Notes: a model not told the origin generated them from the sequence alone. Counted from the stretch's first letter, positions 5,396-27,975 are shown. The stretch is DNA of 64,000 bases from Minisyncoccota bacterium (GCA_028713005.1 JAQTPC010000002.1:36643-100642), one strand, 5' to 3'. Program-made: numbers and translations.

Positions 5396-5429
5396 CATTC
5401 GTTACGCATTATAACCTTTAGTATTATGC

Positions 5430-5462: not shown

Positions 5463-5494
5463 GTGTTATACTTATCCCAAACACCGTTATTTAT

Positions 5495-7552
5495 ATGGAC
5501 GACAACCGCGTTACATATTTCGCTGAGACTGATGCCCGCAACAAACGGGTTAAGTTTGGCATCAAGTCTATCGATCGCACCAAGCACGTCTATGTGATTG
5601 GTAAAACAGGTATGGGTAAATCTACTCTACTTGAAAATATTGCAGTGCAAGATATCCAGAACGGTGCGGGCATGGCCTTCATCGATCCGCACGGGAAGAC
5701 CGCAGATCTCCTCCTTGAATACGTTCCAAAAGAACGCATTCGCGATGTCATCGTCATTGCACCTTTTGATACTGATTTTCCTATTTCATTTAATGTTCTC
5801 GAAAGTGTCGACCCAAAGAAGCGTCACCTTGTCGTCGGAGGATTGATGAGCACCTTCAAAAAGATTTGGGAAGATGCATGGTCAGCGCGCATGGAATATA
5901 TTTTGACGAACACACTACTCGCTCTCCTTGAAGTACCGAATACAACTCTACTCAGTGTGAATCGTATGCTTTCTGACAAGGCCTATAGAAATGAGATCGT
6001 TGCTCAGGTTCAAGATCCATCTGTCAAAGCTTTTTGGGTAAAGGAGTTCGCTAACTATACTGAACGTATGGCAGCTGAAGCAGTGCCAGCTATCCAAAAC
6101 AAAGTCGGTCAGTTCACTGCAAACCCTCTCATCCGAAACATGATCGGTCAGCCGGTTTCATCGTTTGATTTCCGTAAGGCGATGGATGAAAACAAGATCA
6201 TTATCATTAACCTTTCAAAGGGTCGTATTGGTGATGAAAATATGAAGCTCCTCGGAGGACTACTCGTTACCAAGATTTATCTTGCTGCAATGTCGCGCGC
6301 CGATGTGCCTGATCGTGTGGTCAAGATGTTGCCGCACTTCTATCTTTTTGTGGATGAATTTCAAAACTTCGCCAATGCTTCATTCTCTGACATTCTCTCA
6401 GAGTCTCGCAAGTATAAACTCAATCTCACCATTGCTCACCAATATATCGAGCAGATGGATGAAAATGTGAGCGCTGCGGTATTCGGTAACGTGGGTACAA
6501 TGATCGTATTTCGTGTCGGTGCTACTGATGCTGAGGCACTTGAAAAAGAGTTTGCTCCTCAGTTCACAATGGAAGATCTGGTGAACCTCGGCCAGTTCCA
6601 GATGTATCTCAAGCTCATGATCAATGGTCTTACTTCTGCACCATTTTCTGCGACGTCGATGGGTCCGATTCCTCAAGGCAAGGTGTCATACGTCAAAGAG
6701 ATCATTGATGCATCACGTGAGCAGTTCGCACGACCACGTGAAGTGGTCGAGGAAATCATCGCCAAGTTCCATGAACCTACACCTGCTCCAAAAAAGGAAC
6801 CAAGTGCAACTAAAGCTCCGCTTACGGGAGATCTACGAAAACCAGAGCAAAAAATTGTTGCACAAAGTATGCCAGCAACTACTCCTAAAGTTAGTGTAGA
6901 AGTAAAACCAATGTCTGTGCAGACGCCAAAGCCAGAGCAAAAACCTATTTCAAGTGAAATAAAACCTGTAGTCAAAACCGATGCACCAGCAAAATTTGTG
7001 CCTCCCGTGAGAGCGACAGCGCCATCACCTTTGCTCAAGGACACTCTTGCCAAACTTGCTGCCCAGCCACGACCGGCTCCAGTAGTAAAAATGGTTGCAC
7101 CTATTGTTCAAAAATCTGATACAGCGTCTGTGCCTACAGCTCATCAACCATTTAAAAAGGCTTTTGCTACTGTTGCACCAGCGCAATCGACATCAATACC
7201 AAATCCTGTGCAAATAAATACTCAAGTGCCAGCTGTAAAACCAGTATCTCTCTCTTCGCTTCAAAAACCAAATCTTGTATCGCCAGTTTCACCTGCATCA
7301 CCTCGACTTGATCCAAAAGCACAGACTCCGCAAAATGTCAGTCAATTAAAAAATGCATTGGCTGCAGCTCTTGCGAGATCAAAACCTGTTGATGTCACTC
7401 AGGCGGTCCCGCAACCTGTTTCAGCTGAGGTAAACGCACCCGTTTCAGCACCAGTACCAGTGCGACCCCAAATAGAAGAGCAAAAGTCTCAGACAGAACA
7501 TCCACATGAAGTTTCTGAAGAGGTGCTCAAGAAGGTCTTGAAGATTGATTAA
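5495..7552 (+). CDS. TraD/VirD4/TrwB-like AAA+ ATPase (type IV coupling-protein family) with a roughly 250-aa Pro/Ala/Lys/Val-rich low-complexity C-terminal tail
   Basis: Walker A 'VIGKTGMGKST' followed by 'FIDPHGK' (the DPxG motif of coupling proteins). The start was re-set downstream of the terminator, at MDDNRVTYF. Confidence 0.55.
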   Translation: MDDNRVTYFAETDARNKRVKFGIKSIDRTKHVYVIGKTGMGKSTLLENIAVQDIQNGAGMAFIDPHGKTADLLLEYVPKERIRDVIVIAPFDTDFPISFNVLESVDPKKRHLVVGGLMSTFKKIWEDAWSARMEYILTNTLLALLEVPNTTLLSVNRMLSDKAYRNEIVAQVQDPSVKAFWVKEFANYTERMAAEAVPAIQNKVGQFTANPLIRNMIGQPVSSFDFRKAMDENKIIIINLSKGRIGDENMKLLGGLLVTKIYLAAMSRADVPDRVVKMLPHFYLFVDEFQNFANASFSDILSESRKYKLNLTIAHQYIEQMDENVSAAVFGNVGTMIVFRVGATDAEALEKEFAPQFTMEDLVNLGQFQMYLKLMINGLTSAPFSATSMGPIPQGKVSYVKEIIDASREQFARPREVVEEIIAKFHEPTPAPKKEPSATKAPLTGDLRKPEQKIVAQSMPATTPKVSVEVKPMSVQTPKPEQKPISSEIKPVVKTDAPAKFVPPVRATAPSPLLKDTLAKLAAQPRPAPVVKMVAPIVQKSDTASVPTAHQPFKKAFATVAPAQSTSIPNPVQINTQVPAVKPVSLSSLQKPNLVSPVSPASPRLDPKAQTPQNVSQLKNALAAALARSKPVDVTQAVPQPVSAEVNAPVSAPVPVRPQIEEQKSQTEHPHEVSEEVLKKVLKID

Positions 7553-10948: not shown

Positions 10949-11863
10949 ATGGCTGACATGACTAAACCCCTCATTGGATTTATCGGACAAGGCTGGATCG
11001 GTAAGAACTATTCGAACGACCTCGAAGCACGCGGATATACTGTCGTGCGTTATGGTTTGGAAGATGAATATAAAGCCAATAAGATAAAGATCAAGGATTG
11101 CGACATCGTATTTATCGCTGTACCAACGCCAACAACAAAAAAGGGCTTTGATGATAGTTATGTGCGTTCAGTACTGCCACTTATCGGAAAAGGGAAGATT
11201 GCAGTTATAAAATCAACCCTAATTGTTGGTTGCACAGAGCGTCTACAGAAGTCATTTAAAAATATTATTGTTACACACTCGCCAGAATTCTTGAGCGAAA
11301 AGACTGCTGCATATGACGCTGCTCATCCTGATAGAAATATCATTGGTATTCCAGTGAATAATAAAAAATACGTCGATGGGGCAAATCTCGTGTTGTCAGT
11401 CCTGCCATCAGCGCCATTTTCTCTTGTCTGTGATGCGTCTGAAGCTGAGCTCATCAAATATAGCCACAATGTGCATGGATACATTCAGGTTATATTCGCC
11501 AACATTCTCTATGATCTTGCACAGGAATTCTCGATGGACTGGGAAGTTCTTTTCAAAGCATTTTCTGCCAATCCGCTTATGGTTCCACGATATCTCCGTC
11601 CTGTGCATCAGAGCGGTCGCGGGGCAGGAGGCAATTGTTTTGTGAAAGATTTTGAGGCCTTCATCCGTCTCTTTGAGAGCAAGGTAAATGATAAGACGGG
11701 GATCGCAGCACTCAAAGCTATACGCAACAAAAATATCCAGCTTCTTGTCTCATCAGGAAAAGATCTAGAAAAAATCAAAGAGATGTACGGACTTAGTGCT
11801 ATTAGACGCCATCAGAAGAAATCATCGAAGCGCACGCCAGCAAAAAAGTCCGTTAAAAAATAA
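10949..11863 (+). CDS. nucleotide-sugar dehydrogenase family protein (UDP-glucose/GDP-mannose dehydrogenase-like). It is short, with a Lys-rich C-terminal tail.
   Basis: Rossmann 'GFIGQGWIGK' and catalytic-Cys motif 'GGNCFVKDF' (compare GGSCFPKD of UGDH). At 304 aa it lacks the usual C-terminal UDP-binding domain. Confidence 0.5.
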   Translation: MADMTKPLIGFIGQGWIGKNYSNDLEARGYTVVRYGLEDEYKANKIKIKDCDIVFIAVPTPTTKKGFDDSYVRSVLPLIGKGKIAVIKSTLIVGCTERLQKSFKNIIVTHSPEFLSEKTAAYDAAHPDRNIIGIPVNNKKYVDGANLVLSVLPSAPFSLVCDASEAELIKYSHNVHGYIQVIFANILYDLAQEFSMDWEVLFKAFSANPLMVPRYLRPVHQSGRGAGGNCFVKDFEAFIRLFESKVNDKTGIAALKAIRNKNIQLLVSSGKDLEKIKEMYGLSAIRRHQKKSSKRTPAKKSVKK

Positions 11864-12945
11864 TGAAACTCCTCATCCTCACGCAAAAGGTAGATAAGCT
11901 TGATCCGATCCTCGGTTTCTTTCATCGTTGGATAGAGGAGTTTGCGAAGCATGCAGAAAAGGTAACGGTTATAACTCTCAATGAAGGTATTCATCAATTA
12001 CCAGAGAATGTGATGGTTTTTTCACTGGGCAAATCAAAAGATCAGTATGTTGGATTCAAAGATAGAATAAAATTTGTCTTTAATTTTTATGGCTATATCT
12101 GGAGTGAGAGGAAAAATTACGATACTGTTTTCGTGCATATGAACCCAATATATGTTGTTTTTGGTGGTTTGTTTTGGAAGATAATGGGCAAGAAAATATC
12201 TATGTGGTATACGCACCGTGAAGTTGATCTGAAATTGCGTGTAGCTGAAGTATTCGCTGATGTTATTTTCACTGCTGCAAAAGAAAGCTTCAAATTACCA
12301 AGTAAAAAAGTAGTTGTTACTGGGCACGGTATCGATGTTGCTCAGTTTCTCAACATGCAGCGTTCAAAAGTGATCGGCACTGATCCTATCCGTTTATTGC
12401 ATGTCGGCCGCGTCACACAAATCAAAAATTGCGATACCCTCATCGAGGCCGCGAAGATTCTCGGAGAGTGCTGGAATAAGAAGTTTGAAATAGTTTTTGC
12501 GGGTAGTCCTGTCACTGATGCGGACCGGTCATATATGACTTCGCTTTCGTCGCTCATCTCTACCTATAAGCTCGATAATCAGATTAAGTTTATCGGTCAT
12601 GTAGCACCTTCAGATATCAATAAACAATATGCGGCGTGTGATGCGACGGTCAATCTCACGCCAACTGGCGGTATCGATAAAGCCGTGCTCGAATCGATGG
12701 CCTCAGGTGTGCCGGTGTTTTCTTCAAACCAAGCTTTTGTAAATTACTTTGATAGGTATGCTGAAAAGCTTATCTTCAACGAGCGTGATGCAGACGATCT
12801 GGCTCAAAAAATAATGGCATTGTTTGCAGGGGATTTGCAGACTGTGGGCGCTAATCTGCAAAAGATAGCCGAAGAGAAGGCGGATATCGGTGTGCTTATA
12901 CATACTATCTCTGATAAACTGACTTTGTTATGGAAAAACAAGTAA
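11863..12945 (+). CDS. glycosyltransferase family 4
   Basis: GT-B architecture. The C-terminal half has 'ESMASGVPVF' (the EX7E-like region). Confidence 0.65.
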   Translation: MKLLILTQKVDKLDPILGFFHRWIEEFAKHAEKVTVITLNEGIHQLPENVMVFSLGKSKDQYVGFKDRIKFVFNFYGYIWSERKNYDTVFVHMNPIYVVFGGLFWKIMGKKISMWYTHREVDLKLRVAEVFADVIFTAAKESFKLPSKKVVVTGHGIDVAQFLNMQRSKVIGTDPIRLLHVGRVTQIKNCDTLIEAAKILGECWNKKFEIVFAGSPVTDADRSYMTSLSSLISTYKLDNQIKFIGHVAPSDINKQYAACDATVNLTPTGGIDKAVLESMASGVPVFSSNQAFVNYFDRYAEKLIFNERDADDLAQKIMALFAGDLQTVGANLQKIAEEKADIGVLIHTISDKLTLLWKNK

Positions 12946-13550
12946 ATAAAGATCATTATAATTTTAAGGCATATTCTCATCTCGGCCGATGGGCGAGCTA
13001 TTTCTTTCAGCTCGAGCAAGTCTTTTCTTTTAATCCCGCATCTATCCTCGAAATCGGTGTCGGTGACCGCGTTTTTGGAGATTATATAAAAAATAATACT
13101 GATATCAAATATATCTCAGCTGATGTGGCCGAGGATCTCAAGCCTGATGTCGTTGCAAGTGTTACTGCGCTACCTTTCACAGATGGTGAGTTTGATGTTT
13201 CATGCGCCTTTGAAGTGCTTGAGCATATACCATTTGATTCATTTGAAGATGCATTGCGAGAGATGGCACGTGTATCAAAAAAAGCGGTGATCATCAGCCT
13301 TCCTCACTTTGGGCCATCATGTGAACTTTCATTTAAGATTCCTTTTATCAAGAGAGTAAAGCTTGCCTTTAAACTCCCGTTTCATCCAATCCATGCGTGG
13401 AACGGCGAGCACTATTTTGAGATTGGCAAAAAGGGTTATGAAGTCGGCGAGATACGCAACGTTTTGCGTAAGGATTTTGTCATCCAAAAAGATTTTGTGC
13501 CGTTTGAAAATCAGTACCATCATTTCTTCGTTCTCGTTCCTAAAAAGTAA
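12930..13550 (+). CDS. class I SAM-dependent methyltransferase
   Basis: Motif I 'ILEIGVGDRVFG' and 'LPFTDGEFDVSCAFEVLEHI'. Confidence 0.7.
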   Translation: MEKQVNKDHYNFKAYSHLGRWASYFFQLEQVFSFNPASILEIGVGDRVFGDYIKNNTDIKYISADVAEDLKPDVVASVTALPFTDGEFDVSCAFEVLEHIPFDSFEDALREMARVSKKAVIISLPHFGPSCELSFKIPFIKRVKLAFKLPFHPIHAWNGEHYFEIGKKGYEVGEIRNVLRKDFVIQKDFVPFENQYHHFFVLVPKK

Positions 13551-15470: not shown

Positions 15471-16229
15471 TTACGGTAAATTCTTGTTGCTCAAGCGCGC
15501 TGCTTCGGTCATCATCGCAGTGCTGAGATCAATGCGCTGTTTGTCGCGTTTTCCTCGCATATCCGCATCGTCTTCGACAAGTTGTTCAGTCGGGTGAACA
15601 TAGTCCACGGTGACCGACTTAATCTCATAGCCGGCGTCGAGGAACCAGAGCATAGGGATAAATATGATTTCCCAGTTATCACCGTAGGAGCAGTTACCGT
15701 TCTTGCCATTGTAAACGGCCATCATCCGTGCTGCTTGAGGAGTCATGATGCGCGGACCAAAGAAGAGGTCCAGATCAGGCCGGTTCGTGGCATTCGCCAA
15801 CGCCCAGTTTCCGCGGTATTCCGAGAATTGCTGGTAGGCGGGATAGCCGTCCAGATTCTTCCGGCGCGGGATCACCACATCGGCTTCCTCGAAGATGATT
15901 TCATTGAGGCAGGGAACGAGCAATGGAACGAGTGTATATTTTTCCGGCTCAAGCCAGACGATAATGTCTGCGCCAGAGTCGATGCCTGCTCCGAGAGCTT
16001 GGCGGCGAGATGCTCCCATGCCAGAGGTTATCTGGTCGATGACAGTCGCACCAGCGTCTTGAAGTGCTTTCTTGAACTCCGCGCAAGGGCTGCCATCAAC
16101 GATGATGAGGTCATACCCATGCTCTACGCATGCCTGACATGTTTTGAGCGCGAGCTGAGCCCGCGTCTCGTGGATTGATTTGCTGAATGTCGTCGTCACA
16201 AGAACGACTTTTTTTGAATGAACCTTCAC
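15471..16229 (-). CDS. GT-A fold glycosyltransferase (GT2-like)
   Basis: 'VVLVTTTFSKS...DLIIVDGSP' resembles the GT2 N-terminal motif and the DDGS/DXD region. The gene is visibly more GC-rich than its neighbours. It is the only minus-strand gene in this stretch. Confidence 0.4.
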   Translation of the reverse strand: MKVHSKKVVLVTTTFSKSIHETRAQLALKTCQACVEHGYDLIIVDGSPCAEFKKALQDAGATVIDQITSGMGASRRQALGAGIDSGADIIVWLEPEKYTLVPLLVPCLNEIIFEEADVVIPRRKNLDGYPAYQQFSEYRGNWALANATNRPDLDLFFGPRIMTPQAARMMAVYNGKNGNCSYGDNWEIIFIPMLWFLDAGYEIKSVTVDYVHPTEQLVEDDADMRGKRDKQRIDLSTAMMTEAARLSNKNLP

Positions 16230-16389
16230 GGCATACCTTTCTGTTGTGTTTTTGCTGTGTCAGTTCGATGTCGTATCGAACTAAATTCAAATTACATTAT
16301 AGCATTTTATACATGCTATGTCAATAAATATGGCTAGATTTAAGGCTTTATTTCTGATATAGTACGAATCTAAACGCTTATATTTCCAC

Positions 16390-17451
16390 ATGAAAAAAGC
16401 TCTCATTACAGGCATTACTGGACAAGACGGATCATATCTCGCAGAGTTTCTCCTCGATAAAGGTTATGAAGTGCATGGACTTATACGTCGCGCATCATCA
16501 TTTAATACAGGTCGCTTGAGCCACATCTTCCAAGATCCGCATCAAAAAAATAAAAAACTTATCCTTCATTACGGTGATCTCTCTGATTCGAGTAATATTT
16601 CGCGCCTACTCGAAAAGATCCGTCCTGATGAGATCTACAACCTTGGTGCTCAGAGTCACGTTCGCGTCAGTTTTGATATACCTGAATACACAGGTGATAT
16701 CGTTGGTCTCGGTACGCTCCGCCTCCTCGATGCGATCAAGGATACACAGATAAAGACAAAGTTTTACCAAGCTTCATCGAGCGAGATGTTCGGCAAAGCT
16801 GTTGAACTGCCTTTAACAGAAAAGTCAGCATTTCATCCACGCTCACCATACGGTTGTGCAAAAGTTTTTGCGTATTGGACGACCAAGAACTATCGCGAGA
16901 GTTACGGTATCTTTGCGGTTAACGGCATCCTTTTCAATCACGAGTCTCCACGTAGAGGGGAGACCTTTGTGACACGTAAGATTACCCGTGGTCTTGCACG
17001 TATCAAGCTCGGTCTCGAACAAAAACTCTATCTTGGAAACCTCGATGCCAAGCGTGACTGGGGTCATGCGCAAGATTATGTTGAGGGTATGTGGCTCATG
17101 CTTCAAGCAAAAAAGCCTGATGATTACGTCCTTGCTCTCGGTGAGACGCACTCGGTCAGAGAGTTTGTTGAGCTTGCTGCAGCATGTTTAGATATTGATC
17201 TCATCTGGAAAGGTAAGGGTATAAAAGAAGTTGGTATAGATAAAAAGACAAAGAAAGTGATCATTGAGATTGATCCGCATTATTTCAGACCAGCGGAAGT
17301 AGATGTATTACTTGGTGACTCAAAGAGAGCGCGAAAAGAGCTTGGTTGGAAGCCAAAGATATCGTTCAAGAAATTGATTGAGCTCATGGTTGATGCTGAT
17401 ATGGAGAAGGAGTCAGGAAAAAAGAAGATTGTTCATACAAAGAAAAAATAG
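16390..17451 (+). CDS. gmd: GDP-mannose 4,6-dehydratase
   Basis: '[40 protein letters not shown]' is a near-canonical Gmd N-terminus. 353 aa. Confidence 0.9.
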
Positions 17452-17477
17452 TTTAATAGCTTAACTTTGAAATACTC

Positions 17478-18638
17478 ATGATCAAACTCGTCAAATCCAC
17501 TTTTTATAAAGAAAAAGAAACCAAGGAGTCTCTTGCGAAATTTATTCTTAATACAGAGATTATGAGTATGGGTGATGAGTGTAAAAAATTTGAGACAGCA
17601 TTTGCCAAAAAGCAAAAAAGAAAATATGCGCTACTCGTTTCAAGTGGTTCAATGGCAAACCAGGTGCTCATCCAGTCGGTGATGAATAGGGGTCTGCTCA
17701 AAAAGGGAGATAAGGTCGCTGTATCCGCCCTCACGTGGGCGACCAATATTATGCCACTACTCCAGCTTGGGCTTGAGCCGGTCATACTCGATGTTGATAT
17801 CGCTACATTTAACGTCTCATCAGTTGAGCTTGAAAAGCATATAAAAGGCATCAAGGCCTTTTTCATCACGAATGTGCTCGGCTTATGTGGCGATATGTCA
17901 GAGATAAAAAAAGTATGTGACAAACATAATGTGCTCTTGCTCGAAGATAACTGCGAATCGCTCGGCTCTGAAATTGACGGCAAGCTCCTCGGTAACTTTG
18001 GTCTTGCATCAACATTTTCATTTTTTGTCGGGCATCATCTCTCTACCATCGAAGGTGGCATGATATGTACTGACGATGACGATCTCTACAATATGCTTGT
18101 TATGGTGCGTGCGCATGGTTGGGATAGAAATCTCGCTCCTGAAACACAGCAAAAGCTCAGAAAAGAAGCGGGATGCGATGATTTTTATGCCAAGTATACG
18201 TTTTATGATCTTGCGTATAATGCTCGTCCAACAGAGATAACTGGTTTCCTTGGTAATTCTCAGCTCCCTTATCTTGATGAGATGATTACGAAGCGCGTTT
18301 CAAATTTTAAACGCTTTGCTGAAGCGGTGAATGCAAATGATGATTTTATGAAGATTGATCATGCCCATATCAATGCGGTTTCAAATATGGCTATGCCAAT
18401 CGTATGCAAGACGCCAGAAAAAGCCGAGATTTATAAAAAGAAATTTGCTGGTGCAGTCGAAATCAGGCCTGTCATTGCAGGTAATATGCTCAATCAGCCA
18501 TTTTACAAAAAATACGTACATAGCAGTGCTACATATCCGAACACTGACTTTGTACACCAAAATGGTTTTTATTTTGCCAACAATGCAGAATTAACAGAGG
18601 AAGAAGTCGACCTTATCGTAGCTTTATTGAATAAATAA
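17478..18638 (+). CDS. colD: DegT/DnrJ/EryC1 family PLP enzyme with His replacing the Schiff-base Lys. This is the signature of GDP-4-keto-6-deoxy-D-mannose 3-dehydratase (ColD).
   Basis: 'STFSFFVGHHLSTIEGGMICTDDDDLY' compared with my recollection of E. coli ColD 'FSFYYSHHIATMEGG'. The gene lies between gmd and an fcl-like gene. Confidence 0.65.
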   Translation: MIKLVKSTFYKEKETKESLAKFILNTEIMSMGDECKKFETAFAKKQKRKYALLVSSGSMANQVLIQSVMNRGLLKKGDKVAVSALTWATNIMPLLQLGLEPVILDVDIATFNVSSVELEKHIKGIKAFFITNVLGLCGDMSEIKKVCDKHNVLLLEDNCESLGSEIDGKLLGNFGLASTFSFFVGHHLSTIEGGMICTDDDDLYNMLVMVRAHGWDRNLAPETQQKLRKEAGCDDFYAKYTFYDLAYNARPTEITGFLGNSQLPYLDEMITKRVSNFKRFAEAVNANDDFMKIDHAHINAVSNMAMPIVCKTPEKAEIYKKKFAGAVEIRPVIAGNMLNQPFYKKYVHSSATYPNTDFVHQNGFYFANNAELTEEEVDLIVALLNK

Positions 18639-18639
18639 T

Positions 18640-19578
18640 ATGAAAAAAGATTCAAAAATATATGTGGCAGGTCATACAGGTTTGGTCGGTAGTGCCGTGG
18701 TGAGAAAGCTACAAGCTGAAGGCTATGCCAGTGTTGTTACACGTACACGTAAAGAGCTTGACCTCTTGGACACAAAAGCAGTTGATCATTTTTTTTCAAT
18801 AGAAAAACCTGAGTATGTCATCGATGCAGCTGCACGAGTCGGTGGCATCAAAGCAAACATGACGTTTCCTGCAGAGTTTCTCTATGAAAATCTTCAAATA
18901 CAGAACAATCTCATTTGGTCAGCACACAAACATGAGGCAAAAAAATTCTTATTCCTCGGTAGTTCATGCATATATCCTCGCAGTGCCCTACAACCGATGA
19001 AAGAAGAGTATTTTCTCGACGGCAAACTTGAACCTACAAATGAAGGATATGCTCTCGCAAAAATCTCAGGCATGAAGCTCTGTGAAAAGATCAATACAGA
19101 GTATAAAAAAGATTTTATCTCATGCATGCCGACTAACATCTACGGTCCTCATGATAATTTTAGCGAGGAGTCGTCACACGTCATCCCGGCACTTATCCAG
19201 CGTTTACATAAAGCAAAACTCGCAGGTGATGCTGAAGTAGTCATTTGGGGTAGTGGTATTAGTCGACGTGAATTTTTATACGTAGATGATTTGGCTGAGG
19301 CTATTGTATGGCTTATGGAGAACTATGATCAAAAAGAATTTTTGAACATAGGCACAGGCGAGGACGTATCTATCAAAGAATTGGCTACGCTCATAAAAGG
19401 GATTGTGGGCTATGAAGGTAAACTGGTATTCGATACGACTAAGCCGGATGGTATGCCCAAGAAACTTCTCGATGTTTCAAAGCTCACCGCTCTCGGTTGG
19501 CAGTCAAAGACAAAGCTTGAAAATGGGCTTAAGCAAAGCTACGCTTGGTTTTTGGAATACGGACAGAAACAAAAATAA
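18640..19578 (+). CDS. GDP-L-fucose synthase family epimerase/reductase (Fcl). In this context it is probably GDP-L-colitose synthase, ColC.
   Basis: 'IYVAGHTGLVGSAVVRKL' NAD(P)-binding N-terminus. 312 aa, consistent with an SDR-extended Fcl. Confidence 0.75.
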   Translation: MKKDSKIYVAGHTGLVGSAVVRKLQAEGYASVVTRTRKELDLLDTKAVDHFFSIEKPEYVIDAAARVGGIKANMTFPAEFLYENLQIQNNLIWSAHKHEAKKFLFLGSSCIYPRSALQPMKEEYFLDGKLEPTNEGYALAKISGMKLCEKINTEYKKDFISCMPTNIYGPHDNFSEESSHVIPALIQRLHKAKLAGDAEVVIWGSGISRREFLYVDDLAEAIVWLMENYDQKEFLNIGTGEDVSIKELATLIKGIVGYEGKLVFDTTKPDGMPKKLLDVSKLTALGWQSKTKLENGLKQSYAWFLEYGQKQK

Positions 19579-19603: not shown

Positions 19604-20284
19604 ATGAATACTTCTACTCCTGACAGCAGATTTGACCCTGTGGCGACATCAAAGACGTTCAATAGGATATTGGATAGCCTATCTCTGCGTGACACAAAAA
19701 CCCTTGACCTCGGTTGCGGCTGGGGCGAATATCTCGTGAAGTTCGGCACTGGAAGCGTCGGTGTTACGACGACGCTCGCTGAGGTCGAATATGGCAAGAC
19801 TCACAATCTCAATATCGTAAAAGGGAATGTGGAGCTTATCGATACTCTCGGTCTCGACAAGTCTTTTGGGGCGATCTGGGCAAATAACCTTTTTGAGCAC
19901 TTACTCGCGCCACATGCGTTTCTGATAAGGCTCAAGAGCATTACGAAGCCTGAGGGTCTGCTTATCCTCGGTGTTCCGGTCATCCCTGTTATACCTGCCA
20001 TGATGAAGATCGGTAAGTTCCGTGGTGCGTTGGCAGTTGCACATGTCAATTTCTTCACTCGAGAAAGTTTGAAGTTGAGTGTTGAACGTGCGGGCTGGAA
20101 AGTATCAGCTGTCCGTCCATTTATCTTTTCAAATACATTGCTCGATATAGTTGCAAGTTATTTTGCGCCACACCTCTATGTTGTTGCACGAAATAATGCC
20201 GATTTTAAATATGATTCAAAGAAATTGAAAGAATGGAAAGACGATCTTCACTACAAGGGTATCCTCGATATCACTGGGCAATGA
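19604..20284 (+). CDS. class I SAM-dependent methyltransferase
   Basis: 'TLDLGCGWGEYLVKFG' is motif I. The track ORF starts upstream inside fcl, so I re-set the start to ATG 19604 (MNTSTPD). Confidence 0.6.
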   Translation: MNTSTPDSRFDPVATSKTFNRILDSLSLRDTKTLDLGCGWGEYLVKFGTGSVGVTTTLAEVEYGKTHNLNIVKGNVELIDTLGLDKSFGAIWANNLFEHLLAPHAFLIRLKSITKPEGLLILGVPVIPVIPAMMKIGKFRGALAVAHVNFFTRESLKLSVERAGWKVSAVRPFIFSNTLLDIVASYFAPHLYVVARNNADFKYDSKKLKEWKDDLHYKGILDITGQ

Positions 20285-21405
20285 AAATTCTCTATTTACA
20301 GAATATAAGACTGCCTACAGAAAAAGCGCATGGTCTGCAGGTTATGGAAACATGTCACTCATTGGCCTTCGTAGGACATGAGGTTAGTTTGGTTATAGGT
20401 TCATATCTGTCGCTTGATGAAAATGCGATTTTTGGTTCATATAATATAGAAAAGAATTTTTCACTTAAAAAAGTTCCCGTGAGTTTCGGTCGACAAAATC
20501 CCGAGTACACGGGCTTTTTGATGAAGTCTATCATATATGTCTATAATGCATGGAAATCATACGGAAAGAGCTCGTTTGATATTGTCTATACGCGTGACAC
20601 GTTGACCGCGGTCGTTTTCTCTGTGTTCGGTAAAAAAGTATTTTATGAGATCCATGATGTGCGTCACAGTTTGCTCCAGAGGCTGGCATTAAAGAGGGCG
20701 ATAGGAGTGGTCAGTATTACTCGTGGCTTGGTAGATTATTGTGAAAGTATTGGGATAAAGAAAGAGAAAGTTTGCATTGCTCCAGATGCAGTTGATTTGG
20801 TTGAATTTCAGATCAAAGATACAAAGAGCGAGTGCAGAGCAAAACTCGGCTTGCCTCAAAATAAAAAGATCGTTCTCTATACGGGACATCTCTATTCATG
20901 GAAAGGGGCGGATACGCTCGCTCAGTCAGCGCAGTTTCTAGATGAAAATACAGTGGTTACTTTTGTTGGCGGACATGACTACGATATTGAAGTGTTCAAG
21001 AAGCGTTTTGCTGATGCTCGTATATCAGTGCTTGGACGCAAATCTCATGACCTCATGCCGTACTATATGAAGGCTGCTGATGTGCTGGTTCTGCCTAATA
21101 GCGCCAAAGAAGATATATCGCGTCTCTATACATCGCCAATAAAGCTATTTGAGTATATGGCTAGTGGTCAGCCGATTGTTGCGTCAGATTTACCATCACT
21201 TCGCGAAGTGCTCAATGAAAAGAATTGTACATTTTTTGCTCCCGATGACGCATCGTCGCTTGCAGACTCTATAAAGAAAATATTGGCTAATCAGGAGTCA
21301 GTAGATATACGAGCCAAGCAAGCTTTGATTGATGTGCAGGAGTATACATGGCAAAAACGAGCACAAAAGATTATTGATTTCATCAAGACTATCAAACATG
21401 ATTAA
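20281..21405 (+). CDS. glycosyltransferase family 4
   Basis: 'MKILYLQNIRLPTEKAHGLQV' at the N-terminus and 'EYMASGQPIVASDLPSLREVL' at the C-terminus. The start overlaps the upstream stop. Confidence 0.7.
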   Translation: MKILYLQNIRLPTEKAHGLQVMETCHSLAFVGHEVSLVIGSYLSLDENAIFGSYNIEKNFSLKKVPVSFGRQNPEYTGFLMKSIIYVYNAWKSYGKSSFDIVYTRDTLTAVVFSVFGKKVFYEIHDVRHSLLQRLALKRAIGVVSITRGLVDYCESIGIKKEKVCIAPDAVDLVEFQIKDTKSECRAKLGLPQNKKIVLYTGHLYSWKGADTLAQSAQFLDENTVVTFVGGHDYDIEVFKKRFADARISVLGRKSHDLMPYYMKAADVLVLPNSAKEDISRLYTSPIKLFEYMASGQPIVASDLPSLREVLNEKNCTFFAPDDASSLADSIKKILANQESVDIRAKQALIDVQEYTWQKRAQKIIDFIKTIKHD

Positions 21406-22102
21406 AGACCCAGCATTTTATAATAAAGAAAGCATGCAGTATTCTGCAAAGCGCTATCCAGCAGTAGCTACAAACTACGTTCAATTTTTCTTTAAGAGGA
21501 GACTCAGTTTGACTCTCTCACAAATGAGAGGATTATTTGGTGGGAGTAACAACCTCAGTCTCCTCGAGATCGGTTGTGCAGATGGTGTGGTGATGCGTGA
21601 TATACAGCAAAAATTACCCGCTGTATTTTCGAGTATGACTGGAATCGATACTGCCAAAGATATGATTGTTACCGCAGCTACATTAGACAGTACTCATAAG
21701 ATGAAATTTTATGTTCGTGGTGAAGAGCCAATTCAGACTTATGATGCAGTCGTTGAGGTTGGTGTAGTTAACTATGCTGATTTTGATACCGAGCTCGCAT
21801 ATGCCCGCGATCATCTCAAAGCAGGACAAGTATATATACTTTCTATAGCAGGGAAGGGTTCGCTCAATGCTCGTCTCGGTGACGGCGTCGGGTATAATAA
21901 TTTTTTATCTTACTCAGAATATCAAACTAAAATACGTGCATTATTTGATATTAAAAAAACGATTCCTGTCGGTCTGCGTATACCATTTATGTGGCGCGTA
22001 CCTTTTGTGGCACGTCTCATTCAACCAATCGCTGAAATTATGCTTTCTCGAATCGTGCCAAATCTCTTTCACGAAAAAATCTATATCTTGAGAAAACGTT
22101 AG
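21398..22102 (+). CDS. class I SAM-dependent methyltransferase (putative)
   Basis: 'LLEIGCADGVVMRDIQQKL' is motif I. The start was re-set to ATG 21398, which overlaps the upstream stop by 8 nt. Confidence 0.5.
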   Translation: MIKDPAFYNKESMQYSAKRYPAVATNYVQFFFKRRLSLTLSQMRGLFGGSNNLSLLEIGCADGVVMRDIQQKLPAVFSSMTGIDTAKDMIVTAATLDSTHKMKFYVRGEEPIQTYDAVVEVGVVNYADFDTELAYARDHLKAGQVYILSIAGKGSLNARLGDGVGYNNFLSYSEYQTKIRALFDIKKTIPVGLRIPFMWRVPFVARLIQPIAEIMLSRIVPNLFHEKIYILRKR

Positions 22103-23013
22103 AGTTGAATCCATGATTCAGGTATGAGGTCATGTGCAATGGTCTTTGGGTCACCGAAGCGCTGTTTCGGGGCTATGACGATCTTTTGAGGGTTGGTATT
22201 GAGCCATGCGCCCCACCAGCTATATGAGCTCTTTGCGATGATGTTATGTGTACAAGAGCTCATGATAATGAGCTCTTCATAGTCGGGGATATTATACTCA
22301 GATACATATACTGCATCAGGGCTAAAGTTCATATTATTTTTTACCCACTCTATCTCATCAGAAAATACAAAGACGCGGAGTGGGGCACCGTTTGTTTTTT
22401 CTTTTATATACTCAAGCGCTCCCGAATAATATTCACGCGTTAAATCACCGTGCTTTTTGAGTAAAGCAGGATCATTCACTTGATCGCCACGACGGATATG
22501 GATCGATACTGAAAGAGATGATTCAATCATTTTTTCAAGTTCAGCTCCTCTATCTGAGAGTGGTTTTTTGAGCTGAAAATCACTTTTGATTGTTGTTTCA
22601 AATTGTTTGAAATATTTTTCACTTTGCCATACGCCAGAAAGATAGCAATCATGATCAATCTGCATGACCTCAGGTATAAAGTCGAAGCCAGGCTCAAGGA
22701 TGATCTTTCTTTTTTGGAGTGGTTTGATCGATTCGATGAATCTAAATCCTTTGCGAATAATCTTTGAAAATACGTCCTGTTTTATAGGGTTTGGAATACC
22801 TGTTTTTATGAAGTTACTATCTGTAGCGATGAGCTGTTCGATATGTTGAATATTAAAATGGGGAAGTTTGAATGAACGATTAGGTTCGATGTTGAGGCCA
22901 TAAAAGTGCGTATCAAGCTTGAGTTCAGTATTGTGTGCAAGCGATAGCGCTCGCCCTAGAGCGTACTGAAAGAGTTGGTTGCCTATGCCTCCTGATATGC
23001 GAATAATAATCAT
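22099..23013 (-). CDS. GT11 family glycosyltransferase (alpha-1,2-fucosyltransferase family; candidate colitosyltransferase)
   Basis: 'MIIIRISGGIGNQLFQYALGRAL' matches GT11 motif I (GGLGNQMFQYA). The start was re-set to an internal Met, so the gene abuts the upstream stop. Confidence 0.65.
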   Translation of the reverse strand: MIIIRISGGIGNQLFQYALGRALSLAHNTELKLDTHFYGLNIEPNRSFKLPHFNIQHIEQLIATDSNFIKTGIPNPIKQDVFSKIIRKGFRFIESIKPLQKRKIILEPGFDFIPEVMQIDHDCYLSGVWQSEKYFKQFETTIKSDFQLKKPLSDRGAELEKMIESSLSVSIHIRRGDQVNDPALLKKHGDLTREYYSGALEYIKEKTNGAPLRVFVFSDEIEWVKNNMNFSPDAVYVSEYNIPDYEELIIMSSCTHNIIAKSSYSWWGAWLNTNPQKIVIAPKQRFGDPKTIAHDLIPESWIQL

Positions 23014-23014
23014 A

Positions 23015-24670
23015 TTAGTTGAAATATTTTTTGTATGCTTCTTTATTTTTGAGGATGAATAAAGGGAGGTCACTCTCATCTTTCCAGAAGGCGAATTTTC
23101 TTCCGACAAAATCTTTGTTGTCAGACATCATCTGTTCGATCTTTGATTTTATCTCTGTATTGTTAAATTCCTGGTGTCCATATGATTCAATCTTTTTTCT
23201 GATCTGATCCGCACCGCCCATGTTGGTGAAATGCCAACCGCCATTTTTAACATAGGTATATGAAGTCTTTTTCTCAGACCGGAGGTCGTTGAGGTAGCTA
23301 TCTTTTATAATCTTATATTTTGCAACAAGAGGGCCAATCCATGATTCGCTTGAACGATTGTTGAGATAGTACGCATACATATACTGCTTCAGGCGATATA
23401 TCCTATTTTGTGTATAGTCTACTTTAGCATCAGGATTCCATATCTCATCCACGTCAGAGACGTAGCAGATATCATCATCATTGAGACCTACGAGGGCTTT
23501 TTTAATTGATTCTTTTTGGTAGAGCTCTTTTGTCCAATCGACGCCATTTTCTCCGGTAACGCTGTGAGCAAAGACATCTTCAGTAATCTTTTTGTCTATT
23601 TCGTCAGTGTATTTTTTGGCATCAAATTTAGCTTTCAGTTCATCGGTCGTAGCTGCTGCATCCGCTACTACATAATGGATTATTTTATCTTTCCACTGAG
23701 CAAAGCGCTCTTTATTTTCCGCAAAGTATAATGGCTTTGGCATACCAGAAAATGTCTTTGGTGCTTCAACGATAACAAAATAATCGACATGTGGATCGAG
23801 TATATTCAAACGGATCTCAAGTAGATCAAGCTCATTAAAAAATGTGAATATGTCGTAGACTTTGATCTTTTCTCTATAGGCGCTACTTGTTTTGTTGGGC
23901 GCAAGTTGATTTTTGATCGACGAAAGCTCTCGCTTAAGGAATCTCTTTATACCACGCGACTCATAGCGCAGTTTCCCGTGTACCTTGTTTGAATATTTTT
24001 TTATTGAAGTTATTTTTTTCTCTGCTGATTGTATGATTCCCGCGAGGCCTTGTTTTTTAGCATGAAATCCAAAGGGGCGAGGATATGAATCGTCACATAC
24101 TTTTTCTCTACTAAATATTGAAGCGACCGATACAGGTGCGAACTTAACCCCGTTTTCTTCAAGTACTTTTCGATAATAGACACAGAGATTTCCGTCCTCA
24201 TTAAAATAACCCGTACCGTTGTCAGTGAAAGGTAGATTGAGTTTTGCTGGCACCTCAAGGAGTTTTTTGCTTCTGAGTGAGAATCCTCCATTACCAACGC
24301 GAACATTAACACCTTCTTTGGTGAAATGAAGATTTTTTGGCCACGGTGCGCCAATATAGTCATAGCTGAGAAATTCATCTCGCCATTCTTTTGGTCGGAT
24401 CACGTAACCATCGTATTGGACGACCAGAGCAAAATCTGTGTGTATGTAATCCTTGAGCTTATACAGCATGAAATCGCTATAACCCTTATAATCGAGCTTT
24501 TCGATTGTTATGACCTTGATACCTTCTTTCTCCAAAGATATCTTTTCGTGTGTCAGTAACAATGCCTCACTAAAACGTATTCCTACCATGCTCTTTTTGA
24601 GTGCAGTGATAGTCTCAGGTATTCGTATGCTTGATACAGCAACGAGTGTTACATGTGGCAGGTCTTTCAT
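23015..24670 (-). CDS. two-domain glycosyltransferase-like protein. The N-terminal domain is unknown (possibly DUF5672-like). The C-terminal domain is GT17-like.
   Basis: 'YDIFTFFNELDLLEIRLNILDPHVDYFVIVEAPKTFSGMPKPLYF' resembles the Glyco_transf_17 core as I recall it (FNxELDLLExRL...VDxFVIVES..TF.G.pKP). Confidence 0.45.
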   Translation of the reverse strand: MKDLPHVTLVAVSSIRIPETITALKKSMVGIRFSEALLLTHEKISLEKEGIKVITIEKLDYKGYSDFMLYKLKDYIHTDFALVVQYDGYVIRPKEWRDEFLSYDYIGAPWPKNLHFTKEGVNVRVGNGGFSLRSKKLLEVPAKLNLPFTDNGTGYFNEDGNLCVYYRKVLEENGVKFAPVSVASIFSREKVCDDSYPRPFGFHAKKQGLAGIIQSAEKKITSIKKYSNKVHGKLRYESRGIKRFLKRELSSIKNQLAPNKTSSAYREKIKVYDIFTFFNELDLLEIRLNILDPHVDYFVIVEAPKTFSGMPKPLYFAENKERFAQWKDKIIHYVVADAAATTDELKAKFDAKKYTDEIDKKITEDVFAHSVTGENGVDWTKELYQKESIKKALVGLNDDDICYVSDVDEIWNPDAKVDYTQNRIYRLKQYMYAYYLNNRSSESWIGPLVAKYKIIKDSYLNDLRSEKKTSYTYVKNGGWHFTNMGGADQIRKKIESYGHQEFNNTEIKSKIEQMMSDNKDFVGRKFAFWKDESDLPLFILKNKEAYKKYFN

Positions 24671-24674: not shown

Positions 24675-25703
24675 TTACTGTAGCATATCGCCGTTCATGA
24701 GCTTTCTCAAGCGTATGTAACTTCGTCTGAGGAACATCTTTTTTATATCGATCACTGCCCTAAATGTGGATGATTCTTTTCTTAATGTGTGAAAGATACG
24801 CACATTTTCTCTTATCTTATTTTTTAAAGAGGGTTGATAGGTTGTAGTACCCGAATATATGTTGGTATGTGAGGATGTGTAGGTTTTTAATTCCTTCTGA
24901 CATTCATCATAGGTTTGCAATGCACCAGTGCGGTCTTGATACATCCAGCCTGTGGTGAGGCTATACCCGGGACACCAAAATCCATCTGATATATTGTGAC
25001 GTGCCCAGTATTTTGGTGCGATGCAGTATTTGAGATTTTGGGAAAGCCAGGCAGGGAACCAGGCAAAGCTCGAGTTAGAGAGTATGAGGTAGTGAGCATT
25101 TTTTATCACCGCATAATCTTTACCGATGTTAAAGTGATGTATTTCGAGGTCAGGAAAGAATGTTTTTGCAGTAGCCGGGTCTTCGGTGATGACGATAAAT
25201 CTGAACCTTGGATGTATCTTTTTCATATGATCCATCGCATGTCTCCAGTAGCTCGGTGGGAGCAAAAGCTCTTTTTCGCTGACATAGCCGCTTCCTCGAA
25301 AATTGACGATGCATATGTCGTCGCTGGCAAAATCCTTAAAATCGGCCTCAGGTTTGACTGCGAGCCATTCGCGTATCTCATCTTTTCTATGAGCGATATA
25401 TCGTTCATCCTGCATGATGCCATCTATTTTTGTATCGTCGGCGACATTCATCAGACCCTCATCATAAATACGTATATCTGCGCCGTTCAGTGGATGTAAA
25501 AGTTCTTTTTCCTGGTAATGAAATGTGGGGTTTTTGAGTACAGTTTTGCCAAGGTCAAGATTCAAAAAATCAGCACCTTTGAATACTTCAGGTGATTGTA
25601 TGCCAAAATCATAACCTTTATCTTTGGCAATACTTCGAGTGACTACATAGCACCAGAGTTGGTTGCCGAGTCCTTGTCCTTTGTAAAATTGCGTCGTTAT
25701 CAT
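24675..25703 (-). CDS. GT11-like glycosyltransferase (second fucosyl/colitosyl-transferase family member)
   Basis: N-terminal 'FYKGQGLGNQLWCYVV' resembles GT11 motif I. Confidence 0.4.
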   Translation of the reverse strand: MITTQFYKGQGLGNQLWCYVVTRSIAKDKGYDFGIQSPEVFKGADFLNLDLGKTVLKNPTFHYQEKELLHPLNGADIRIYDEGLMNVADDTKIDGIMQDERYIAHRKDEIREWLAVKPEADFKDFASDDICIVNFRGSGYVSEKELLLPPSYWRHAMDHMKKIHPRFRFIVITEDPATAKTFFPDLEIHHFNIGKDYAVIKNAHYLILSNSSFAWFPAWLSQNLKYCIAPKYWARHNISDGFWCPGYSLTTGWMYQDRTGALQTYDECQKELKTYTSSHTNIYSGTTTYQPSLKNKIRENVRIFHTLRKESSTFRAVIDIKKMFLRRSYIRLRKLMNGDMLQ

Positions 25704-25707: not shown

Positions 25708-27183
25708 TTACTTAATTTTTCGGAGTATCACGCATTCATCACGGAGTTCTTGCTTGAAATGGTATTTTTCTATTGCACTATAAAATGCGGCGCTCGAGCC
25801 GGGTTTCATCCGGTCATGAAGTTCGATAATGAGTATGTTGACCTTGCTCAACCATGAGTCACAATTTCCCGAAAAGAGTTCTTTTTCAGCACCTTCTATA
25901 TCTAGTTTTAAAATATCGATCTCAGCATATCCTGACATCTTGAGCACATCATCAATAGTGATTGCTTCAACGACATTGTCACCACCAGATTGTGCTTCTG
26001 TAGTAGTGAATGCCCATTCGCCTAGACCACTATCATTAACGGCTAACTTAGTTGTTTTATTCCATAAACCTTTTTTAAGAGGATGAATGAGAGGATATCG
26101 AGATACATTTTTCTGTAATGTACGGAAGTTTGTATTTTCTGGTTCAATGGCAAATATTTTTGCGGTAGGAAACTGCTTTGCAAAAAAGACAGATGTGTAG
26201 CCAACATTAGCGCCACCATCGATGATGAACTTTGGTTGTATAGTGCCATAATCTATGCCGTATTGTTTTTCGATGAAAACCTGCCTGATAACCGCTGCGT
26301 CAGAAGTATTGAAACGTACGATAAGTGGGAAGAAAGTAATACGATACTTAATCGTTGTTAAGATGTGCAGAGTAGTCTTTTTTGTCGCTAGATACCATGA
26401 GCGCATGCCTGAATTTGTGTTTCGTTTGATGAATTCTTTTATTTGTCTCTTGTACCTTTTAAGCTTGTAAGTAATGAGTTTCTGCCAAAAACCAGATATA
26501 TTGTATTTCTTAAGTATATAGCGGTATTCATTCTCTCGTATTTTCTCTTTGCTTGAATTGCCCATCTGGTTTCCATGGACACGGATGACGACGTTTACAT
26601 CATTTAATATCTTGGGTGCACCATAGCGTTCGTAGTATCTCTTATAAAAATCGAGATCCTGCCACCATATGAGATTAGTATCAAATAAAACAGGGTTATC
26701 ATTTCGTAGTGTCGCTACCGAAGGTGCACTGATAGTGTTTTTGAAGAGTATTTTCTCATCATTATATGTAGGAAAGAAAGGACGATAAAATGTCTCTCCA
26801 TCCTTAGATGAAATACTTGCAGTAAGGAGCCAACGGTCTTTTTCAAGATCAAAGTTCTGTGCGATTTCTTCAAGTGCTTTTGGATGATAGAGAAAATCAT
26901 CGAGGAAAAGTATCTTAATCAATTTTCCTGTAGCGTGCTTGATGGCATTATTATTGTTATCGGACGGCGTTGCCTCTGGCTTTTCTCTGAAATAATGGAT
27001 ATCGAGACTGTTACTGTATTCTTTGCATACTTTGTCTATCTCATCGTTTTTTGATTGGTCAGATATGACTACGTCAAAATCAGTGAATGTTTGCAATATA
27101 AGCTTGTCAAAACTGAATCGCAAAAAATCTGCACCTTTACCACCCATTTCATATGTAGATATACAGATGCTGATTAGTTTCAT
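25708..27183 (-). CDS. bifunctional GT2 glycosyltransferase / FkbM-family methyltransferase
   Basis: N-terminal 'ISICISTYEMG...DFDVVISDQS' is GT2-like. C-terminal 'IDGGANVGYTSVFFAKQFPTAKIFAIEPENTNF' is the FkbM methyltransferase signature. Confidence 0.6.
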   Translation of the reverse strand: MKLISICISTYEMGGKGADFLRFSFDKLILQTFTDFDVVISDQSKNDEIDKVCKEYSNSLDIHYFREKPEATPSDNNNNAIKHATGKLIKILFLDDFLYHPKALEEIAQNFDLEKDRWLLTASISSKDGETFYRPFFPTYNDEKILFKNTISAPSVATLRNDNPVLFDTNLIWWQDLDFYKRYYERYGAPKILNDVNVVIRVHGNQMGNSSKEKIRENEYRYILKKYNISGFWQKLITYKLKRYKRQIKEFIKRNTNSGMRSWYLATKKTTLHILTTIKYRITFFPLIVRFNTSDAAVIRQVFIEKQYGIDYGTIQPKFIIDGGANVGYTSVFFAKQFPTAKIFAIEPENTNFRTLQKNVSRYPLIHPLKKGLWNKTTKLAVNDSGLGEWAFTTTEAQSGGDNVVEAITIDDVLKMSGYAEIDILKLDIEGAEKELFSGNCDSWLSKVNILIIELHDRMKPGSSAAFYSAIEKYHFKQELRDECVILRKIK

Positions 27184-27189: not shown

Positions 27190-27975
27190 CTATTTTGCCT
27201 TGGAACCACCAGTCTTTTGCTTTGCCCACGTAAGTTCAGAAACACGCTTCCACATAAATCGAACCTTGCGGCGTGTTCTGTCGAGGAGACGTGGCATATC
27301 AACTACATATGTAGAACCTTCGATTTTTGCAGGGTATTTTTTTATAAATACAATGCTGCGGTATAGGTGCATAAATTGGATAGCATCTTCCCACCATGAA
27401 AGCACGGTTTTATTGTTGAGGTGATAAGCGTCAGTTGCATCGAGCGCATGATTTCCGGTGCCCGATTTGCCAGATGAATTAACATAATCAACCAACTCCT
27501 TGATCTTATCGATGAATACAGGTTCGCCCGCGCCATGTGTCTTTCCCCAGTAACACATATGGAGATCTTCGACGACATAGATGCCATCGGGTTTCAGGAG
27601 AGGAAAGAGGCAATCAAAACTTGCTTTCATATCAGGATTTCGGTGACTACCGTCGTCGATGATGATATCGAATGGGCCATGCTTTTTGTTGATCATGGCG
27701 AGAAATGCAGGATCGCTTTGGTCACCTTTTTCAGTATATATCCTCTCTTGTTCAAGCTCTTTGCAATCTTCTATATCTGCACCAACTAGTTTTGCTTTAA
27801 TGAAGTATTCTTTCCAGGTGAGGAGTGAGTGTCCATTGGCGATGCCTATCTCAAGAATTGTTATAGGCTTATCGCGAAGTGCTTCAAAATAGGCAGCATA
27901 CAGCTTTGTATAGTTGTGTTTTCTGCTTGATTTGTCTGTACCGTATTTCAGTGCGATCTCATCGAGTGTCTTCAT
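27190..27975 (-). CDS. SAM-dependent methyltransferase (TylF/MycF-like sugar O-methyltransferase family, putative)
   Basis: 'KYGTDKSSRKHNYTKLYAAYF...ILEIGIANGHSL' is the Methyltransf_24-like pattern. Confidence 0.5.
   Translation of the reverse strand: MKTLDEIALKYGTDKSSRKHNYTKLYAAYFEALRDKPITILEIGIANGHSLLTWKEYFIKAKLVGADIEDCKELEQERIYTEKGDQSDPAFLAMINKKHGPFDIIIDDGSHRNPDMKASFDCLFPLLKPDGIYVVEDLHMCYWGKTHGAGEPVFIDKIKELVDYVNSSGKSGTGNHALDATDAYHLNNKTVLSWWEDAIQFMHLYRSIVFIKKYPAKIEGSTYVVDMPRLLDRTRRKVRFMWKRVSELTWAKQKTGGSKAK

Follow-up and report, generated by a model that had tools for sequence, protein, structure and literature searches.

In a 64,000-nucleotide stretch of a Minisyncoccota genome (JAQTPC010000002.1:36643-100642; hereafter the window), belonging to a metagenome-assembled genome (MAG) of Candidatus Paceibacterota in the candidate phyla radiation (CPR), three tightly packed plus-strand open reading frames (ORFs) were found at positions 16390-19578. 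They encode the GDP-sugar 4,6-dehydratase Gmd (ORF1), a predicted sugar 3-dehydratase with a histidine in its active site (ORF2) and an epimerase/reductase of the Fcl type (ORF3), and are separated by gaps of 26 nt (ORF1/ORF2) and 1 nt (ORF2/ORF3). Homology, active-site features and conserved synteny together make it probable that this trio is a GDP-L-colitose branch that supplies a surface-glycan cluster of the ABC-transporter type. An earlier note on this DNA had proposed a complete, textbook colitose operon. The three ORFs that it placed here were confirmed with their exact boundaries and with profile matches too strong to be due to chance, and both the canonical Gmd upstream of ORF2 and the Fcl-type enzyme downstream of it are real. 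The assignment amounts to a sensible re-annotation involving distant relatives of ColD and ColC of Escherichia coli, and to no new kind of system.

ColD, ColC, Fcl and Gmd of E. coli O55:H7 CB9615 served as reference proteins. ORF1 scored 573.6 bits on the gmd profile TIGR01472, above the equivalog cut-off of 415, and is therefore a bona fide Gmd; it also matched Pfam GDP_Man_Dehyd with 502 bits and shares 61% identity with E. coli Gmd.

The 3,6-dideoxyhexose chemistry of the proposed pathway is textbook knowledge, and colitose itself is known experimentally from the O-antigens of a few Gram-negative genera. In the window, the trio would be co-transcribed and its product would be GDP-L-colitose (3,6-dideoxy-L-xylo-hexose as the sugar). 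Gmd would first convert GDP-mannose to GDP-4-keto-6-deoxy-D-mannose. ORF2, using pyridoxamine 5'-phosphate (PMP) and with His186 acting as general acid/base instead of a lysine, would then form a Schiff base at C4 and expel the C3 hydroxyl; because ORF2 has no Fe-S cluster, its product would be released hydrolytically as in ColD, giving GDP-4-keto-3,6-dideoxy-D-mannose and ammonia, and PMP would finally be regenerated from glutamate. ORF3 would epimerise C5 (Cys110/His180) and reduce C4 (Ser108/Tyr137/Lys141, with NADPH) to yield GDP-L-colitose. The sugar would be used by glycosyltransferases of the surrounding cluster, the best candidate being a glycosyltransferase family 11 (GT11) protein encoded at 22099-23109, and its target would be a cell-surface glycoconjugate.

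Active site and fold of the predicted 3-dehydratase

ORF2 matched Pfam DegT_DnrJ_EryC1 (PF01041) with 214 bits. Nucleotides 18018-18062 encode the segment SFFVGHHLSTIEGGM, whose GHH lies opposite the SHH of E. coli ColD in the HMMER alignment, and the first His of this SHH is His188, as fixed by the PDB mutant entries 3b8x (H188N) and 2r0t (H188K). His186 of ORF2 thus occupies the position of the Schiff-base lysine of sugar aminotransferases and is aligned with His188 of ColD and His220 of E1. In an alignment of 124 representatives, retrieved by searching 1.84 billion cluster representatives, this column is His in 124/124, in agreement with the earlier reading of a His and no Lys at this site, and D157, S181, N248, R250 and R330 are near-invariant. 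The residues of the pyridoxal 5'-phosphate (PLP)/PMP site that ORF2 has in common with ColD comprise D157, E160, S181, N248, R250, R217 and R330. The conserved Arg and Asn residues are also kept in E1, and they therefore do not discriminate between nucleotides.

A sequence search of the PDB returned ColD of E. coli O55 (2gms) as the best match of ORF2 (1.4e-64, 221 bits), with E1 (3bcx) at 167 bits, perosamine synthase at 100 and ArnB at 66. When the AlphaFold model of ORF2 (mean predicted local distance difference test score, pLDDT, of 84.9) was compared to the PDB with Foldseek, the top 12 matches were all ColD, with TM-scores of 0.82-0.85, and E1 ranked 16th-17th. The sole segment of the model with pLDDT below 50 comprises residues 185-191, the loop that bears the catalytic His-His pair.

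The earlier note had treated the active-site His as the hallmark of ColD. The residue is present, but it is not specific to ColD: E1 and SpnQ have the same substitution and are told apart from ColD by a four-Cys [2Fe-2S] motif and by their dependence on a reductase (PMC8987622). The four-Cys segment of E1 aligns to RAHGWDRNLAPETQ in ORF2, which contains no Cys. In place of this segment ORF2 has RAHGWDRNLAPE, resembling RAHGWTRNLPKK of ColD, and the wider stretch of the E1 Fe-S region corresponds to VRAHGWDRNLAPETQQKLRK in ORF2 and IRAHGWTRNLPKKNKVTG in ColD. Throughout the ORF2 clade, the segment of the Fe-S motif holds 0-1 Cys. Judged by sequence and fold, ORF2 is a member of the His-type NDP-4-keto-6-deoxyhexose 3-dehydratases (the ColD/E1/SpnQ superfamily), and because the Cys cluster of E1 is missing from it, we infer that its chemistry is of the Fe-S-free, hydrolytic ColD type. 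The assignment to this mechanistic class draws on the residues and the fold.

The likeness to ColD (WbdK; EC 4.2.1.168; E. coli O55 and Yersinia pseudotuberculosis; 2gms, 3b8x, 2r0t, 3gr9) extends from the common DegT/aspartate-aminotransferase fold to the catalytic His at the Lys position, the lack of an Fe-S cluster, Gmd as the upstream enzyme, the DNCES, SxHH and RAHGW-R-NL motifs, and a length of 388 aa against 386 aa in ORF2. The two differ in that Ser187 of ColD is replaced by Gly185 in ORF2, and in their setting, the host of ORF2 being a CPR bacterium without lipopolysaccharide (LPS). E1 (RfbH/AscC/DdhC) is also a PMP enzyme of the His type, whose substrate, an NDP-4-keto-6-deoxyhexose, loses its C3 hydroxyl, but its [2Fe-2S] cluster sits on an insert rich in Cys and it depends on the E3 reductase (PMC8987622), whereas ORF2 lacks both the insert and the cysteines, and neither E3 nor CDP-glucose genes lie near it.

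Synteny of the trio and the Fcl-type reductase

Because ORF2 falls outside the group of characterised ColD enzymes (see below), its specificity for a GDP-sugar is argued from synteny, which is the main evidence for the predicted GDP substrate. With one representative genome scanned per GTDB species, the ORF2 subfamily was detected in at least 581 stretches. Its CPR carriers include Saccharibacteria, Paceibacteria, Berkelbacteria, Peregrinibacteria/Peribacteria, Uhrbacteria, Vogelbacteria, Dojkabacteria and WWE3, and outside the CPR it was found in Streptomyces and Chitinophaga isolates, proteobacterial MAGs and one archaeal MAG. Among the best 80 loci, gmd (a Gmd at least 50% identical within 6 kb) was present in 58/80 and an Fcl-like gene in 42/80, and the exact gmd-dehydratase-fcl order was found in 23/80; at loci whose dehydratase is at least 60% identical to ORF2, gmd and the Fcl-like gene each occurred in 14 of 16. 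Wherever an adjacent 4,6-dehydratase was present in the sampled loci, it was of the Gmd type. No CDP- or dTDP-sugar enzyme genes were detected in the sampled loci without gmd, where the genes alongside coded for glycosyltransferases, a Gmd-family dehydratase, a NUDIX protein and short-chain dehydrogenases/reductases (SDRs). In a Saccharimonadales locus (L004) and a Parcubacteria locus (L005), the same trio is followed by methyltransferases; ManC is encoded close to the trio in L004, as it is in 4/80 loci overall. The gmd-dehydratase-fcl trio is common in CPR bacteria and widespread elsewhere too, and it is a peculiarity neither of the Minisyncoccota genome nor of its lineage.

Some carriers depart from this arrangement. 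In seven Peribacteria/Peregrinibacteria loci (L028, L035, L040, L046, L055, L062 and L079), the dehydratase and gmd are accompanied by a different SDR, 22-32% identical to the Fcl-like enzyme, and in Sulfuricaulis (L050) the partner of the dehydratase is a Gmd-family protein 42% identical to the Gmd of the window. Their products may be 3,6-dideoxy sugars other than colitose, differing in C4/C5 configuration or having a heptose skeleton. Among cultured bacteria, five Streptomyces spp. (L021, L022, L025, L031 and L032) and Chitinophaga sp. SYP-B3965 (L070) carry the dehydratase at 55-57% identity. In Streptomyces sp. NPDC093261 (L021), gmd lies about 1.5 kb upstream of the dehydratase and an Fcl-like gene directly downstream of it. 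A Wzy_C protein, a nucleotide-sugar dehydrogenase and a UDP-GlcNAc 2-epimerase mark this locus as one of the polysaccharide type and not as an obvious natural-product cluster.

Two known systems invite comparison with the trio. The gene set matches that of the colitose operon of E. coli, as the earlier note had stated, but the contiguous order does not: in E. coli O55, gmd, manC, manB and a GT11 gene lie between galF and gnd, and colD and colC lie beyond gnd. The GDP-3,6-dideoxyheptose pathway of Campylobacter jejuni HS:5/HS:11 likewise runs from a GDP-sugar 4,6-dehydratase through a PLP-dependent C3-dehydratase to epimerase/reductase steps, but it starts from GDP-glycero-manno-heptose, employs a separate epimerase and reductase, and has dehydratases 62-67% identical to ColD (PMC10440746). 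Unlike in that pathway, the 4,6-dehydratase of the trio is a canonical Gmd.

ORF3 reached 466.1 bits on the GDP-L-fucose synthase model NF047922, below the equivalog cut-off of 500; on the same model E. coli Fcl scored 550.9, two CPR homologues about 470 and E. coli ColC 304.4 bits. ORF3 shares 53% identity with E. coli Fcl and 42% with E. coli ColC, and ColC and Fcl share 39%. Its residues S108, Y137, K141, C110 and H180 align with S107, Y136, K140, C109 and H179 of E. coli Fcl. Following the roles given in the literature on GMER, we take the Ser/Tyr/Lys triad to serve reduction and the Cys/His pair epimerisation in ORF3. As all catalytic residues are present, they do not decide between an Fcl and a ColC role. 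Both known enzymes resemble ORF3 in these residues. Fcl (GMER/WcaG of E. coli, 1bsv) also shares the position after Gmd in a GDP-sugar operon, and ColC (WbdJ of E. coli O55) has the SDR fold and the role predicted for ORF3, namely C5 epimerisation and C4 reduction of GDP-4-keto-3,6-dideoxymannose; ColC is more divergent from Fcl than ORF3 is.

The neighbourhood of ORF3 homologues was sampled in 80 metagenomic loci chosen solely by similarity to ORF3. In the neighbour-joining tree, a dehydratase gene was present in 30 of the 34 informative loci of the ORF3 clade, whereas in the sister clade that includes E. coli Fcl it was present in 4/26 loci, with gmd directly upstream in 13. Members of the ORF3 clade thus nearly always follow a 3-dehydratase gene, unlike Fcl. 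By this pattern ORF3 belongs to a lineage derived from Fcl and linked to the dehydratase, which supports a ColC-like role that would have been gained independently of enterobacterial ColC. The earlier proposal of an Fcl-like reductase in the ColC role is thus supported by the coupling to the dehydratase, with the qualification that ORF3 is nearer to Fcl than to ColC and is no orthologue of the latter. ORF3 may retain GDP-fucose synthase activity as well.

Position 151 of ORF3 is Ile in 68/71 members of the dehydratase-coupled clade, whereas ordinary Fcl has Tyr or Phe there (Tyr150 in E. coli). Ile is also found at the equivalent position of E. coli ColC, and Leu81 is a similar shared difference; this likeness of the ORF3 clade to ColC may be convergence. 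The clade-signature residues number three only and are mostly conservative, and the argument for a change of specificity from these residues was dropped as too weak.

Weighing the colitose assignment

Several observations weigh against a GDP-L-colitose branch. ORF2 is 33% identical to E. coli ColD by BLASTP, and in a common alignment the distances are near-equal, with 32% identity between ORF2 and ColD, 31% between ORF2 and E1, and 32% between ColD and E1. ORF3 is nearer to Fcl than to ColC and hence could be a plain Fcl, and its clade was recovered at a Jaccard index of at least 0.9 in 35/40 bootstraps and exactly in 0/40, with trees of the neighbour-joining type only. Moreover, tblastn searches of the 64-kb window with ManB, ManC and Gmm of E. 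coli had no hit, so that the window does not bear out the completeness claimed in the earlier note. CPR bacteria also lack LPS. The function of the ORF2 subfamily is deduced from sequence and context. Finally, characterised ColD-type enzymes share 62-67% mutual identity, and this group includes the C. jejuni enzymes with heptose substrates (PMC10440746).

Phylogenetic analysis by neighbour joining grouped ORF2 with neither the ColD clade nor E1, but placed it in a third clade. By these comparisons ORF2 is not an orthologue of ColD. The earlier assignment as a ColD-type dehydratase thus survives for the mechanistic class, by the fold and the missing Cys motif, and fails for orthology. We consider the odds about even that ORF2 belongs to a third, so far uncharacterised clade of Fe-S-free His-type 3-dehydratases paired with an Fcl-derived colitose synthase independent of ColC, that colitose or a methylated derivative is common in the surface glycans of monoderm-like CPR bacteria and occurs also in Streptomyces and Chitinophaga, and that the key enzyme is mislabelled in public databases.

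Alternatively, the trio may chiefly be a GDP-L-fucose operon of Gmd and a true Fcl, from which the dehydratase diverts part of the intermediate; a bifunctional reductase would then give both GDP-fucose and GDP-colitose, or another enzyme would finish the 3-deoxy intermediate to a different or O-methylated 3,6-dideoxyhexose. The closeness of ORF3 to Fcl and its score on the Fcl equivalog model, well above that of ColC, are in keeping with such an operon, as are the methyltransferase genes that follow the trio in the window and in relatives and the quite different SDR with which some relatives pair the dehydratase. However, the ORF3 clade is nearly always coupled to the dehydratase, with plain gmd-fcl pairs falling in the sister clade, and the 1-nt spacing between the dehydratase gene and ORF3 suggests coupled expression. 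We regard this alternative as unlikely; it is also partly compatible with the GDP-L-colitose branch, as colitose would still be made.

It is considerably less probable that ORF2 is a 3-dehydrase of the E1/SpnQ type acting on CDP- or dTDP-4-keto-6-deoxyglucose, on the way to an abequose/paratose/tyvelose-type or trideoxy sugar. Relatives of ORF2 at 60-72% identity number in the thousands and bear the JGI label 'CDP-6-deoxy-D-xylo-4-hexulose-3-dehydrase', ORF2 is about as similar to E1 as to ColD, and its best NCBIfam match is RfbH. This match, however, reached 204 bits, far under the cut-off of 423, and ColD itself scored 263 bits on the RfbH model. ColD obtained only sub-threshold matches, to RfbH and PseC, and no ColD-specific NCBIfam model was among the matches; the RfbH match of ORF2 is therefore uninformative. 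In addition, the adjacent dehydratase is Gmd in the window and in most relatives, and no E3-type reductase, CDP-glucose 4,6-dehydratase or cytidylyltransferase was found in the window. With the four-Cys Fe-S motif and the E3 and CDP genes all missing, an E1-type identity of ORF2 was rejected.

The last alternative, a sugar aminotransferase (for example GDP-perosamine-synthase-like) making a 4-amino sugar, would suit the DegT fold and the NCBI name of the identical protein MDD5165086.1, 'aminotransferase class V-fold PLP-dependent enzyme', but is scarcely credible and was rejected on the invariant His, the Per and ArnB scores being much below that of ColD, as the earlier note had expected, and ColD itself having needed the H188K substitution for study with bound GDP-perosamine or as an aminotransferase-like form (PDB titles; PMC8987622).

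The surrounding glycan cluster and its meaning

The trio is part of a glycan cluster some 27 kb long (window 7555-34075), which contains several GT4 and GT2 genes, a GT17/DUF5672 protein and at least six methyltransferase ORFs, one of the cluster's methyltransferases being an FkbM-type domain fused to a GT2 (Table 1). Its gene content is typical of a polymer that depends on an ABC transporter and receives a cap, possibly through methylation, and the many methyltransferases together with the Wzt_C domain fit a glycan that bears methylated residues or ends in a methyl cap. Because CPR bacteria lack LPS, either a glycoprotein or a polymer linked to the wall presumably serves as the acceptor.

Table 1. 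Features of the trio and its neighbourhood, in window coordinates
Feature	Position	Strand	Remarks
Methyltransferase ORF	12930-13550	+	
Divergent intergenic region 5' of gmd	16230-16389	.	minus-strand promoter inside
ORF1, gmd	16390-17451	+	353 aa; product GDP-4-keto-6-deoxy-D-mannose
ORF2, predicted GDP-4-keto-6-deoxy-D-mannose 3-dehydratase, His-type, Fe-S-free	17478-18638	+	386 aa
Codon of catalytic His186 of ORF2	18033-18035	+	equivalent of ColD His188
ORF3, Fcl-derived epimerase/4-reductase, predicted GDP-L-colitose synthase (ColC role)	18640-19578	+	312 aa
Class I S-adenosylmethionine (SAM) methyltransferase	19604-20284	+	Pfam Methyltransf_23; ~226 aa from probable ATG; 226-aa call in identical contig
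GT4 glycosyltransferase	20233-21405	+	Pfam Glycos_transf_1
Methyltransferase	21329-22102	+	Pfam Methyltransf_12
GT11 glycosyltransferase, candidate colitosyl-/fucosyltransferase	22099-23109	-	Pfam Glyco_transf_11, 97 bits
Weak GT11-like protein	24675-25703	-	Pfam Glyco_transf_11, 22.2 bits, below cut-off
Methyltransferase ORF	25708-27183	-	
Methyltransferase ORF	27190-27975	-	
Wzt (ABC ATPase and Wzt_C carbohydrate-binding domain) and Wzm (ABC-2 permease), glycan exporter	29610-31789	-	Wzt, 29610-30884
Wzy_C (O-antigen-ligase-like) membrane protein with tetratricopeptide (TPR) repeats, candidate ligase/oligosaccharyltransferase	31802-34075	+	

The candidate GT11 shares 35% identity with the GT11 of the colitose O-antigen cluster of E. 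coli O55, which we take to be the colitosyltransferase WbgN; PGAP labels the latter an alpha-1,2-fucosyltransferase. The methyltransferase directly downstream of ORF3 has a homologue in the same relative place in L005, with 50% identity. A Wzy_C protein is encoded near the trio also in L005 (16064-17161) and in Streptomyces L021 (1868-3292), the TPR fusion being found in the CPR cases.

Upstream of gmd, a perfect sigma-70-type promoter (TTGACA, a 17-nt spacer and TATAAT with a TG extension) was found on the minus strand at 16324..16296. It is oriented not towards gmd but towards a 252-aa ORF (15471-16229, minus strand) with no family assignment, whose sole match, to a dolichyl-phosphate hexose transferase (E = 0.007), is at chance level. 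In the upstream region of gmd (16230..16389), the promoter scan gave no plus-strand promoter scoring at least 9/12, and the number of promoter-like sites in the scan equalled the shuffled expectation. The GC content is even along the region, and the composition gives no sign of a recent transfer of the trio.

Two further ORFs of the window deserve mention. For the 304-aa ORF at 10949-11863 (plus strand), similarity is confined to the central part of nucleotide-sugar dehydrogenases (TIGR03026, profile positions 72-303 of 413; 114 bits, where the cut-off is 189.8), without the N-terminal dinucleotide-binding start and the C-terminal domain; the gene may have been truncated or have degraded. A VirD4/TraG/TrwB-like coupling ATPase of 708 aa is encoded at 5426-7552 (plus strand), immediately ahead of the glycan cluster; a type IV secretion system has reportedly been described for Patescibacteria in a bioRxiv preprint (10.1101/2025.01.22.634366).

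Our literature search returned no relevant report linking colitose or GDP-L-fucose with Patescibacteria/CPR. A colitose branch has been inferred in a verrucomicrobial endosymbiont with a tiny genome (PMC8204192), and a census of 12,939 genomes lists colitose alongside fucose and treats it as phylogenetically widespread, with its absence noted only for TACK archaea (PMC7725333); genome-level predictions of colitose outside enteric bacteria therefore already exist.

If the GDP-L-colitose assignment is true, it would correct a systematic mis-annotation, in which thousands of proteins are labelled 'aminotransferase' or 'CDP-...-3-dehydrase E1', and the presence of the trio in cultured Streptomyces and Chitinophaga would make its chemistry accessible there. 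It would also mean that a 3,6-dideoxyhexose is present in the surface glycans of many ultra-small episymbiotic bacteria, whose surface chemistry probably mediates attachment to their hosts.

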